Shown here in pieces: positions 32,054 through 35,949 of a stretch of 35,949 nt of DNA. The stretch is from a virus (taxonomy: Duplodnaviria > Caudoviricetes): positions 1-35,949 of IMG/VR virus record IMGVR_UViG_3300020460_000030, one strand, 5' to 3'. The position numbers and the translations under genes are program-made. Numbering within the stretch: the first letter of the stretch is position 1; every line of letters begins with the position of its first letter. The notes beneath the pieces are model-generated. The model ran no database searches. It was not told the origin of the DNA and saw only the letters and a program-made list of their open reading frames with translations.

Positions 32054-33589
32054 TTATGCATCTTTAAATAATACGAAATTGTTTGCACCTTGAACGATTA
32101 AACATCTTTCAGATAAATAGTGCATTCTCATTTCATCAATTGGAGAACTTGAAGGTCCACCAACAGATCCAGTAACCCAAGACTTATTTTTTCTATTTTC
32201 AGTCTCAGAAGCTCTGTATCTAATATGCAAGAATGGTCTCTTGATATTTTGGCCAAGGACTTGGTCATAAACTGTAGAAGTACCAGCAGGTACTAATACA
32301 CCTTCGATGTCACCAAAACCTCCTCTTGTAGAAAAGTCATTTAAATATTTCCAGTCAGTTTTATAGAAGTCATAAGAACCTCTTCTGTAACCTGTAAATC
32401 CTAAAGTTAACGCCATATCCTCGCTGTTATTAAATACACCAAAAGAAGTTCCTCCTGAGTATCCACCATTTTGTTGTGCAAGAATGTCATCAATTTCTAA
32501 AGAAAGATTTCTATCTAAGAAAAGCATATTTTCTTCAATAGCACCTTGTTTGTCTAACTGTGTTAAAACTGCGTCAAAATCAGTTAAAGCACCGCCACCA
32601 CCTCCAGCTTGTGCACCAAATCCTGAATATACATTTCCTCTAGCTTCAATAGCTTCAAAGAAACCTTCAGTACCTCTAGCAGTTGCTGTAAGTGAAGAAT
32701 CGTAAAAATCCAAAGTAGCACCAGTGTTTAATTGTTTAACACCTTCAACCATAGTCATTTCCATATAATCTTCCCAACGTAATCTATTTTCGTGTTCAGA
32801 TTTTAAATACCATAAGTATCCGCTAGCTCCATTTTCAGAAGTAACTTCAATCCATCCAATTTGTGCAGTGTCAGAACCATTAATAGAATAATGCTCTTTT
32901 AAAATTATAGGACTGTTCTTAAATGTAGCATAGCTAGGATCTAATTTTTCAGTAAAGTTAGAAGATCCTTTTGCAAATTCAGAACCATAAGCAAGTGCAG
33001 TAAATCTTTGTGCATTTGTAATAGCAGGAACACCACCATAAGCTTTAACTTGAAAGTATTGTCCACTAACATTAGTAACAATACCTTTAATCATAGCACC
33101 AGTTCCTCCAATTGCAGATGTTGCGCTTGTTTGAGCTTGAATCATAACTGTTTGACCTTTTCTAAAGTTAACAGCTGTTGTACCCTGTGAAGTAACACCT
33201 AAGCTAGTTGGTTGAGCAGTTGGGACAAAAAAGTTTCCAACGCTACCACCTGTAGTTACTGCAGAAGCAGTTCCTGGAGTTGTACCACTAGTAGGCATAG
33301 TTCCAGCGTTACTTAAATAAACGATATTTGCATATCTTGTGTGCAATCTACCTTGCTCAGTCCAAATAATTTGGTCTGAAGTAGAAGGCATCTCCGCAGA
33401 TACCATACGTAAGAAAGAACCGATAGATCTGTTTCCATATCTTTCAACTTCTTGCTCGTATACATCTGGTAAAAATTGTTGAGCCCACTGATTAAAACTT
33501 GAATCAGTGAAATCGATATAGTTCCCTGAATATAATGCCTTAGTTTGAGTTGGTTGTAAGGCAGCGGGAACGCCACTTGTAAAAGCCAT
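32054..33589 (-). CDS. major capsid protein
   Basis: 511 aa, after the scaffold and before a terminator; QFLPDVYE.E.ERYGNR, IWTEQGRLH, LGFTGYRRGSYDFYKTDWKYLND, HYLSERCL. Confidence 0.85.
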   Translation of the reverse strand: MAFTSGVPAALQPTQTKALYSGNYIDFTDSSFNQWAQQFLPDVYEQEVERYGNRSIGSFLRMVSAEMPSTSDQIIWTEQGRLHTRYANIVYLSNAGTMPTSGTTPGTASAVTTGGSVGNFFVPTAQPTSLGVTSQGTTAVNFRKGQTVMIQAQTSATSAIGGTGAMIKGIVTNVSGQYFQVKAYGGVPAITNAQRFTALAYGSEFAKGSSNFTEKLDPSYATFKNSPIILKEHYSINGSDTAQIGWIEVTSENGASGYLWYLKSEHENRLRWEDYMEMTMVEGVKQLNTGATLDFYDSSLTATARGTEGFFEAIEARGNVYSGFGAQAGGGGGALTDFDAVLTQLDKQGAIEENMLFLDRNLSLEIDDILAQQNGGYSGGTSFGVFNNSEDMALTLGFTGYRRGSYDFYKTDWKYLNDFSTRGGFGDIEGVLVPAGTSTVYDQVLGQNIKRPFLHIRYRASETENRKNKSWVTGSVGGPSSSPIDEMRMHYLSERCLIVQGANNFVLFKDA

Positions 33590-33611: not shown

Positions 33612-34901
33612 TTATTGTTTAAATTTAATGCGCAACTTATCCGAAGAATTACCTGAAACAACTCTAATTTTATCACCCGAAGACGTAGTAATTACAGAAT
33701 TATCTACTCTAGGATTCATATCAATATTGTTAGCTTTTTTAGCAGCTTCTTTTATAGCGTCGGCACGGCCTTGCTCATAGAAGTGATTAGCTATTTTATC
33801 GGCATTTCGTCCAGCAAATAATGCTTTATGATATTCATTAGCATTACCTAAACTACCATCTTCTGTAATATATTCATTAATAAAGTTTTTCAAGTCTGAT
33901 TGATATTTTTTTACATTTTCCGTATTATCTATTTTAAATCTATATTTGTTTTCACCAACCTGAAAATCAAAACCTTTGAAATCTTTATTGAAAACTTTTT
34001 CTGTTCGATCTAAAAATATTTTTTGTTGTTTTTGCCAATCTTCTTGTTCTTGTTGCTTAGCATTATAATACTCCATTGCTTGGACATATTTAGGATCAAT
34101 ATCTTCTTGCTTTCTTAACTTAAGATCTGCATAATATTTTTTCTTAGAATTGTCAAAATAATTTTGAGCATTATAAAGTTCTTCTTTAAAAGCTAATTTT
34201 TTAGCTTTTATATCTGTTGGTTCATCTGTTTCTTCATCATAAGAAAAGTTTTTATTCATTAAAAAACTTAAATCATCAGAATCAAGATGAGGTTTTGTAG
34301 ACTTATAATATTCTCTTAAAAGAGATATGTTATCCATCTTTGAAAAGTCTCTATTTAGATTAACATAATCTTCAAGACTTCCGCCGGTTTCTTCCATAAA
34401 TTTTATAAGATTGTCTACATTTTCTGGAAGCTCTTGTGTTTTAGCTTCCGGTAATATTTTTTCTTGTTCCTGTACGGGCTCGGGGTCTTTAGTGCTTGTA
34501 TCCACTCCTGCCTCGTCAGTTGTATTTTTTTCATCTGTAACAAGTTCTAAAGGTGATTCTACTTCTTCCCTTTGTTTTTCTTCGTTACTTTGATTTTTTT
34601 CTTTTTGTTTATTTTCTCCGGCAGGCTCTTTAGACTTTTCTTTGTCTTCCGCTTGAACCTTTTCGCTAGTTTCGGATCCGTCGCGTACAGATACCTCATT
34701 TGTGCTTTGCTTCTGAACGGCATCCTTATTTTCTTTTTGTGGTTTATCTAAATTTACTTTATAAACTCCATCAGGTTGTAATCCATAATCTGGGTTTACA
34801 TCTCCTTCTTTAATAGCTGTATCCAAAACAGCAGCTTCTTTTTCTTGCGGTGAAGTTTCTTTTTTGTCTTCAACCGGTTTTACTTGTACTTGTTCTTCCA
34901 T
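33612..34901 (-). CDS. capsid scaffolding-like protein
   Basis: Very acidic, low-complexity N-terminal third; helical remainder; sits between portal and MCP. Confidence 0.7.
   Translation of the reverse strand: MEEQVQVKPVEDKKETSPQEKEAAVLDTAIKEGDVNPDYGLQPDGVYKVNLDKPQKENKDAVQKQSTNEVSVRDGSETSEKVQAEDKEKSKEPAGENKQKEKNQSNEEKQREEVESPLELVTDEKNTTDEAGVDTSTKDPEPVQEQEKILPEAKTQELPENVDNLIKFMEETGGSLEDYVNLNRDFSKMDNISLLREYYKSTKPHLDSDDLSFLMNKNFSYDEETDEPTDIKAKKLAFKEELYNAQNYFDNSKKKYYADLKLRKQEDIDPKYVQAMEYYNAKQQEQEDWQKQQKIFLDRTEKVFNKDFKGFDFQVGENKYRFKIDNTENVKKYQSDLKNFINEYITEDGSLGNANEYHKALFAGRNADKIANHFYEQGRADAIKEAAKKANNIDMNPRVDNSVITTSSGDKIRVVSGNSSDKLRIKFKQ
34415..34534 (-). CDS. overprinted (+1 frame) 39-aa basic peptide with ArfA-like NKKKYxRKxKH motif
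   Basis: MKKIQLTRQEWIQALKTPSPYRNKKKYYRKLKHKSFQKM*, nested in the scaffold gene. Confidence 0.55.
   Translation of the reverse strand: MKKIQLTRQEWIQALKTPSPYRNKKKYYRKLKHKSFQKM
34559..34723 (-). CDS. overprinted (+1 frame) 54-aa basic protein of the MPFxSxAQ type
   Basis: MPFRSKAQMRYLYATDPKLAKRFKRKTKKSLKSLPEKINKKKKIKVTKKNKGKK*; A at -3, -6 and -11 to -13 before the ATG. Confidence 0.65.
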   Translation of the reverse strand: MPFRSKAQMRYLYATDPKLAKRFKRKTKKSLKSLPEKINKKKKIKVTKKNKGKK

Positions 34902-34930: not shown

Positions 34931-35949
34931 TTATTTAGGTTCAAATCTCGATAAATCAAACCCACCTAATACATCATTGCCTTTAGATTCAAAAGATTTT
35001 TTAGGCTTTTCAGTTCTAGGCGGCCCTTGTATTTTATTAATAGAAATTTTTTCTTTACTTCTATTTTGCTTTTCAACTAATTCTTTTTGGGCCTCTAACT
35101 CTAGTTGTTTTAATTTGACATTTAAATCATATTCAAACTGCATTAATTGTTTTTTTGTTCTTGCTTCAATTTCTAATTTTTTAATATCTAACTCAGCAGA
35201 ACTAGTTTGAATTTGTATTTTAGACTCTGTTTTTACTTGCTCAGCTTGTGCTTTAGCCTGTTCTATTTGAATTTGTGCTTGGCCTTGTGCTTCAGCTTGG
35301 GCAACACTAGCAGCTTGAGCTTGTTGTTGATCAGCTTGTTGTTTTTTAACTCTTCTAAATTTAAGAAGCTGATTAGCTAATTTTGTATTATTAATATCTC
35401 TAATATCAATAGCGTCTTCTAAAAATATACTGTTTTGAGCTAAAGCAGCTTGTATATTTGCTTCTAATAAAGCTTTTTCTTCTTGATCTGGTTCTAATTC
35501 TAAAAATATACCAAAATCGTGCATGTGTAATTCTTTTAATTCATTTAAAGAACCTACAGTAAATTTTCCTAATGCAGATATAAAAGCTTCTTTTTGAGGA
35601 TGATAATTTAAAACATCTTTAAATCTTAAAGATATTGCCTCAGCAATACCTAATGTAATAGACATACTGCTATCTAATATATGTCTTGTTGCAGTATTAC
35701 TATTTGCTGCAGCTAATTTTTGTACGCCTACTAATGCTTTTGGATCGGGATCAGATCCATCTCTAGCTTCATTTAATCCTGTAATATCTCGAATCATTTG
35801 AAGATATTGATTATAAGCTGTAATTAAAACTTGTATTTGATTACCTCCCCCACCTGGTAATTCTTGAATAGGCACTTTGCCTTGATTAGGATCGCCATCA
35901 ACAGTTAATGATCTACCTATTATAGATCCTGTTTGAAAATACATATTCA
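34931..35949 (-). CDS. portal protein, C-terminal part (partial, starts beyond window)
   Basis: MYFQTGS; IRD.TGLNEARDGS.P...LVGVQKLAA.NSNTAT.HI; Q-rich C-terminal coiled coil; upstream of scaffold and MCP. Confidence 0.85.
   Translation of the reverse strand, partial: NMYFQTGSIIGRSLTVDGDPNQGKVPIQELPGGGGNQIQVLITAYNQYLQMIRDITGLNEARDGSDPDPKALVGVQKLAAANSNTATRHILDSSMSITLGIAEAISLRFKDVLNYHPQKEAFISALGKFTVGSLNELKELHMHDFGIFLELEPDQEEKALLEANIQAALAQNSIFLEDAIDIRDINNTKLANQLLKFRRVKKQQADQQQAQAASVAQAEAQGQAQIQIEQAKAQAEQVKTESKIQIQTSSAELDIKKLEIEARTKKQLMQFEYDLNVKLKQLELEAQKELVEKQNRSKEKISINKIQGPPRTEKPKKSFESKGNDVLGGFDLSRFEPK

Follow-up and report, generated by a model that had tools for sequence, protein, structure and literature searches.

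We have analyzed a window of 35,949 bases, the whole of a linear virus record that is about 55% complete. Near one end of it, the genes for portal, putative scaffold and putative capsid functions lie side by side, and the middle one of these (here called the host gene) contains two further open reading frames, ORF1 and ORF2, in its +1 frame (Table 1). The host gene matched no PHROG family, and its relatives in Elemovirus, Panino and the Manatee Spring phage are annotated as structural or hypothetical protein. The label of scaffold is given to it on the basis of its position between the portal and capsid genes and its acidic N-terminus, and it is likely a scaffold-like head-assembly gene. The putative MCP is 40-48% identical to proteins of Flavobacterium, Maribacter and Manatee Spring phages. 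The best GenBank matches of the capsid and host genes include phages of Flavobacterium (Elemovirus), Maribacter and Cellulophaga as well as the Manatee Spring phage; from these matches the bacterium infected is likely a member of the Flavobacteriales. An estimated ~9,200 stored stretches in IMG/VR carry the scaffold pattern, which would make this an abundant marine phage group.

Table 1. Features of the head region of the window, in window coordinates
Feature	Position	Strand	Remarks
Putative MCP, virion structural protein	32054..33589	-	phrog_13704, E=1e-91; downstream neighbour of host gene
Host gene, 429 aa	33612..34901	-	acidic N-terminal linker and conserved C-terminal domain
ORF2, 39 aa, overprinted in +1 frame of host gene	34415..34534	-	ATG start, TAG stop
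ORF2 tail, N23-K-K-K-Y-x-R-K-x-K32-H33	34436..34468	-	invariant or nearly so in alignments; aligned to ArfA 29-48
K32-H33 codons of ORF2	34436-34441	-	putative counterpart of ArfA/BrfA KH motif
ORF2 residues 8-16, predicted helix with W11	34487..34513	-	AlphaFold2 H8-16, pTM 0.35
W11 codon of ORF2	34502-34504	-	stop in 6/16 close relatives
Spacer and initiation region of ORF2, 24 nt	34535..34558	-	one in-frame TAG, C at -3, unstructured
ORF1, 54 aa, basic, MPF-x-S-K-A-Q type	34559..34723	-	same +1 frame as ORF2; phrog_1375, E=1.5e-4
Portal gene, 3' part	34931..35947	-	phrog_6547 portal, E=6e-45; upstream neighbour, cut by window end

Coding potential of the overprinted frame

ORF2 would encode a very basic peptide (13 K/R against 1 D/E) that matches phrog_6310 with an E value of 0.0084. 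Its AlphaFold2 model consists of two helices, residues 8-16 and 24-38, and has no strand. A first-pass annotation, made from the letters of the window, had described ORF2 as a second hidden peptide gene 24 nt beyond ORF1 in the same frame, with C at -3 of its start and unusual host codons (GAC GAG, GAC CCC GAG CCC, CCG) along its length. These particulars were confirmed: the stop of ORF1 ends at 34559, and GC3 in the host frame is 12/41 over ORF2 vs 42/266 downstream (Fisher p=0.046).

When the host residues were recoded synonymously 10000 times, 4430 of the recodings retained the open +1 frame and its ATG; taken alone, the open frame is within chance. The peptide sequence is beyond it. On an HMM built solely from stand-alone homologs ORF2 scores 72.6 bits, and 2000 recodings of the host gene averaged 17.9 bits on the same model, with a maximum of 42.5. 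The first-pass annotation had warned that K-rich motifs can arise in this frame; the recoded mean reveals such a default K-richness, and the score of ORF2 exceeds that of every recoding.

None of 34 window genes checked ends in TAG (25 end in TAA and 9 in TGA), and both ORF1 and ORF2 do; host codons such as GTA GAx have probably forced these stops. Fusion of ORF1 to ORF2 through TAG read-through was considered, since both intervening stops are TAG. It was rejected because many relatives have TAA stops just upstream of the ATG, the window contains no tRNA and one of the W11 stops described below is TAA.

Conservation of the +1 frame

A search with the peptide found 80 viral loci, and at every one of them the frame is overprinted (+1) in a host gene of the kind seen in the window; one of them (L026) has an internal stop. 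A second search used the C-terminal domain of the scaffold alone, which avoids selecting loci on the ORF2 peptide, and its best 80 loci were analyzed. The ORF2 tail motif occurs in 22 of these (21 intact, 1 broken), and the HMM scores of the scaffold-found loci are bimodal, at 43-82 bits or essentially nothing. Among 20 distinct scaffold-found copies captured by the core pattern, identity over 84 shared bases is 0.71 in the +1 frame vs 0.44 in the host frame, with the same order in 186 of 190 pairs. Base entropies at host codon positions 1/2/3 are 0.99/0.55/0.34 over ORF2, the reverse of the pattern in the scaffold's own domain (0.71/0.39/1.14). Since the 20 copies had been picked through a +1 motif, entropy was recounted outside the motif: in 15 such columns of all 116 copies it is 0.95/0.70/1.06 at +1 positions 1/2/3, so that the order of codon positions is unchanged and the contrast weaker. 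Six distinct sequences close to that of the window give identities of 0.87 (+1) and 0.77 (host). The identity values bear out conservation of the +1 frame across homologous scaffold genes, on which the first-pass annotation had made its proposal depend.

Of 47 distinct start contexts, 46 have ATG and one has GTG; T is the last base in 787 of 1138 comparable Asp/Asn codons. The ORF2 start has a PWM score of -2.5. The 30 starts presumed to be real, 22 of them with A at -3, have a median of 2.8 (leave-one-out), and 78% of 417 internal ATGs score lower than the ORF2 start. The initiation region is predicted to fold at only -0.9 kcal/mol (dG), and initiation in Bacteroidetes is described as proceeding without Shine-Dalgarno sites (PMC6847099). 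The start context appears weak but plausible. ORF2 is a real, selected gene of 39 codons overprinted in the acidic linker of the probable scaffold: its frame has codon-periodic conservation and a conserved start, and its homologs occur as separate genes.

An accessory gene in a variable linker

ORF2 is an accessory gene. The close relatives that have a stop at W11 are L007-L012 (TAG at 5 loci, TAA at 1). These stops arise through changes in codons shared with the host frame, and L011 has further ORF2 substitutions beside its stop, consistent with decay after loss. The frame is absent in two more distant relatives (L017 and L018), and the GenBank relatives Manatee Spring, elemoF and Panino lack it over the initial 720 nt of their host gene. 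In a quick tree built from 87 scaffold rows, at least 9 gains or losses are needed to explain its presence.

Such a distribution, together with the W11 stops, the additional substitutions in L011 and the weak start, would suit a family that functions elsewhere and is represented here by a silent or decaying relic, preserved solely because the scaffold frame is under constraint. We regard this as quite improbable, because variation tracks the +1 frame rather than the host frame, even among the six near sequences, and because the window's ORF2 retains its ATG and every residue that is invariant in the family.

Other peptides share the linker. The ORF1 type, whose stand-alone family is phrog_1375, is commoner than ORF2, a related +1 motif being found in 51 of the best 80 scaffold relatives; 8 of the 21 intact ORF2 copies are accompanied by an ORF1-type peptide and 13 are not. 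In a clade of 12 listed loci (L140, L153, L154, L162, L164, L167, L173, L178, L180-L183), ORF2 lies about 30 codons further upstream and carries longer N-terminal extensions, and ORF1 is absent; L175, of the same clade, has ORF1 in place of ORF2. At L135, L138, L144, L145, L170 and L174 the +1 frame of the linker contains other Met-started basic peptides, some with Cys or with repeated S-P-x-K units, which suggests several further overprinted families. The scaffold linker appears to behave as a swappable cassette of basic peptides, and standard annotation misses conserved genes that a head gene conceals in its acidic linker in this way.

This variability bears on function. ORF2 could specify a late protein with a generic affinity for nucleic acid, such as an internal head peptide whose role is to neutralise DNA or to pair with the acidic linker of the scaffold, and its resemblance to the ribosome-rescue factor ArfA would then be convergence of K/R-rich tails. 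Its location with the portal, scaffold and capsid genes, the unrelated basic peptides that succeed one another in the linker (including the 13 intact copies that lack the ORF1-type motif, and the swap at L175) and the default K-richness of the +1 frame of acidic linkers are all in keeping with such a protein. We nevertheless consider it, the main alternative, rather unlikely; the conserved residues, neighbourhoods and 3' ends that argue against it are given in the next two sections.

Stand-alone homologs and family membership

Stand-alone homologs, which the first-pass annotation had named as a test of its claim, are present in hundreds, and nearly all are from phages. A profile search returned 757 proteins at E<=0.01 (120 listed), and a representative profile search 30. 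The 78 new loci obtained from alignment A5 comprise 10 stand-alone, 66 nested and 2 unparsed copies; the 51 from alignment A6, 42 stand-alone, 0 nested and 9 unparsed; 80 metagenome loci, 73 stand-alone, 0 nested, 6 truncated and 1 unparsed; and 18 genome-collection loci, 13 stand-alone and 5 nested. Searches of GenBank phages by tblastn with the ORF2 peptide and an ATRP-type homolog (see below) gave no match, and a DNA pattern made for P0002 and P0003, the closest homologs among called genes, found 0 viral contigs. The cluster of P0002 (41 aa) also lists an unrelated protein of 434 aa, P0007, probably as a clustering artefact.

The invariants of the family are L6, W11, two prolines, N, Y, R and K-H, and all are kept in the window's ORF2. 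K32-H33 is invariant in alignments A3-A5; across 116 nested copies K is present in 100% and H in 95%. These sequence-specific residues exceed what charge alone would need and argue against a generic nucleic-acid-binding peptide. A second subtype, with the pattern T-Q-x-E-I...A-T-R-P (the ATRP type), is homologous at 98.3% probability, and some of its members have KY or KF in place of KH.

The family gave no NCBIfam match, and a profile search of the PDB returned nothing. PHROG families 6310, 18092 and 2701 match the tail half weakly, as does DUF7230 (PF23876), in 12/24 nested-type and 9/9 ATRP-type members. No match shown reaches the curated DUF7230 cut-off of 27 bits (L195 scores 19.6 bits), P0001 is without a match, and the best nested-type E value is 0.0075. 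Two of 6 fetched DUF7230 genes end in K-Y-x-R-x-x-K-H, spaced as in the ORF2 tail, but the N-terminus of DUF7230 is an N-P-V-A helix where the ORF2 family has L-T-x-x-E-W. A literature search found no described function for DUF7230. On the profile matches we assign ORF2 to a large unnamed family of phage peptides.

Cellular copies are rare, and a core host gene was rejected: matches were found in just 3/301 genomes of the genus and 2/401 of the order, the centre genome included. A few cellular copies have apparently chromosomal settings, for example, as judged by eye, beside an msrB-like gene. Judged by eye, the neighbours of stand-alone copies are mixed and mostly small non-structural genes. 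A tRNA gene is present at 10 of 60 loci, some copies lying inside tRNA arrays; a translation-gene neighbourhood is unsupported by this mixture. Three stand-alone copies (L284, L311 and L327) flank genes that resemble structural or packaging genes, as a head peptide might, but the prevalence of small non-structural neighbours, the tRNA arrays and the few chromosomal copies speak against that role.

Some further settings were observed by eye. The copies in L198 and L201 are near a tRNA nucleotidyltransferase-like gene, with an RNA ligase-like gene also nearby in L198. In L192, L193 and L197, from Flavobacteriales bins, the peptide gene is followed by a gene of 340-360 aa and a reverse-transcriptase-like gene. 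In L347 a small basic ORF ending in Y-R-G-Q-G-K (2241-2376, + strand) lies two genes upstream of the stand-alone copy.

Hairpins in stand-alone copies

The arfA and brfA genes are described as being expressed from non-stop mRNA owing to a hairpin inside the coding region, in brfA a terminator (PMC8012679, PMC6881298). We called a hairpin strong if its energy was no higher than -11 kcal/mol, searched the 90 nt that follow the KH codons, and found one in 33 of 105 distinct stand-alone 3' regions; the other 72 have none. In all 33 the hairpin starts 0-7 nt downstream of the His codon and is complete before the stop codon is reached. Control ORF ends of the same loci, which belong to ORFs of at least 100 aa rather than to small genes and were scanned over a different span, have a hairpin in 30 of 699 cases; of these, 0 precede the stop, 8 overlap it and 22 follow it. 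The stems represent at least 8 unrelated sequences, and G-U pairs on the sense strand outnumber A-C pairs by 13 to 5. Most carriers have one downstream gene in common and are mostly of a single phage lineage, so that the number of independent settings is about 5 or 6; some stems are without a clear U-run.

A GC-rich hairpin followed by the promoter-like motif TCGTATATT is a recurring intergenic module in these phages, seen at L347 (2607-2650) and also in L185, L205, L216, L367 and L392. The hairpin of the stand-alone copies, of which L337, L347 and L392 are examples, is part of a module of this kind, which is found behind other sequences as well. RNA data for L347 (4 of 21 listed runs) consist only of small word shares and contigs, a kind of data from which transcript ends are unreadable.

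The placement of the hairpin before the stop in stand-alone copies would correspond to the non-stop-mRNA layout of arfA and brfA and adds support for a role in rescue; it would serve no purpose in a head peptide. The nested ORF2 is not arranged in this way, its TAG following six codons after KH.

Proposed function

We propose, with a probability of about 0.5, that the ORF2 peptide binds the mRNA channel and rescues ribosomes in the manner of ArfA and BrfA. Translation would start at its own ATG within the late transcript of the head genes. On ribosomes that have stalled on broken mRNA and whose mRNA channel is empty, the basic KH-bearing tail would take hold in that channel, and a host release factor would free these non-stop ribosomes with the help of the N-terminal half of the peptide. 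Having its own stop codon, the nested copy would be made alongside the head proteins without the tmRNA control expected for hairpin-bearing copies. This proposal is favored by selection on the +1 frame, family membership, the tail motif and the hairpin layout. Against it stand the missing ArfA match and loop (see below), the weak start, the W11 stops and the interchangeability of the linker peptides. A predicted complex of the peptide with Flavobacterium RF2 (domains 2-4) scored 0.01 and was counted neither way.

A literature search, largely of papers open without subscription, found none that deals with the ORF2 family or with nested genes of this sort in the phages concerned. More small rescue factors, invisible to sequence search, are expected by the authors of earlier work (PMC8012679, PMC6881298). 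The family may tentatively be viewed as one of these: a further, independently evolved group of release-factor-recruiting peptides, found nearly only in phages of Bacteroidota, hosts without a known ArfA. This wider proposal, in which we place less trust than in a rescue function as such, involves two regulatory forms, one a stand-alone gene expressed from non-stop mRNA and controlled by tmRNA, the other a swappable cassette with its own stop, overprinted in the scaffold linker and made with the head proteins. If true, phages supply their own ribosome rescue. The peptides are short, synthesisable candidates whose KH motif and in-gene hairpin are testable, and they concern a group of hosts in which arfA is so far unrecorded.

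Comparison with known systems

The first-pass annotation had seen in ORF2 a motif like that of E. coli ArfA. The likeness holds for the tail, which shares the elements NKK and YxRKxKH with ArfA; it fails for the Pfam family and for the GKGS loop. In the ArfA HMM search PF03889 was matched at E<=10 by 0/24 nested-type and 0/9 ATRP-type members, whereas gp30 of pelagiphage HTVC027P, the positive control, matches it at E=4e-4. Scored on the family HMM, residues 1-55 of E. coli ArfA reach 12.2 bits, a value attained by 0 of 500 shuffles in a comparison that was chosen after the likeness had been noticed. Profile comparison with E. coli ArfA yields probabilities of 1.2% and 12.3%, and an ArfA-labelled cluster in the ESM Atlas (23% of members) gives 0.91 and 0.90, with recognition scores under the trusted level.

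ArfA and the ORF2 peptide are both small and basic, with a helix followed by a basic tail. The match is limited to residues 29-48 of ArfA, where the Y-x-R-K-x-K-H of the family is in register with Y39-H45. The K-K-G-K-G-S-Y loop of ArfA is missing, the family reading N-K-K-K-Y with a 3-residue gap. In ORF2 the stretch that joins helix and tail is shorter by about 5 residues, and there is no hydrophobic C-terminal extension; the nested copy also has its own stop. At the position of the release-factor-binding strand of ArfA (27-30) the ORF2 subgroup has P-x-P, and the AlphaFold2 model has no strand; in the ATRP subtype a V/I-x-K/R-N stretch aligns with ArfA 25-32. Since two defining features, the Pfam match and the loop, were tested and neither was found, ORF2 is not filed as ArfA. 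The ORF2 family is also mostly phage-borne, and its host group is one in which arfA was recorded in 0 of 1,956 genomes in a survey of the FCB group (PMC11633108).

KH is described as the sole notable sequence feature common to ArfA and BrfA, where it contacts a pocket of the mRNA channel (PMC8012679, PMC6881298). ORF2 possesses a basic C-terminal tail of this type with its KH motif, and thereby resembles BrfA (B. subtilis YqkK), whose tail enters the mRNA channel (PMC6881298). BrfA is set apart by two N-terminal helices and about 62 active residues.

A sharing of the channel-binding tail alone, with the upstream strand and loop different, would also fit a peptide that plugs the mRNA channel and recruits no release factor, competing with tmRNA-SmpB or ArfB or idling host ribosomes. 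The length of 39 aa, below the 55-62 aa given for the active forms of ArfA and BrfA, points the same way (PMC8012679). We think such a plug unlikely: ArfT, also of about 40 aa, still recruits release factors (PMC8012679), and production from non-stop mRNA suits a back-up rescue factor better than an inhibitor (PMC6881298).

Phage genes annotated as ArfA or ribosome rescue, by annotation only, are already known, namely HTVC027P gp30 and Citromicrobium phage RXM g10 (PMC12753301, PMC8953757). Like ORF2 these are phage-borne small basic genes. The stand-alone gp30 scores 1.2 bits on the ORF2-family HMM, a value equaled or exceeded by 197 of 500 shuffles.

Out-of-frame nested genes are familiar in phages, two examples being E of phiX174, in the scaffold gene D, and Rz1 of lambda, in Rz. 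As in these cases, ORF2 is a small gene lying in another frame wholly inside a morphogenesis gene. It is unlike them in that selection on the bases common to both frames is governed mainly by the nested gene, in its many stand-alone homologs and in being one of several swappable linker peptides.
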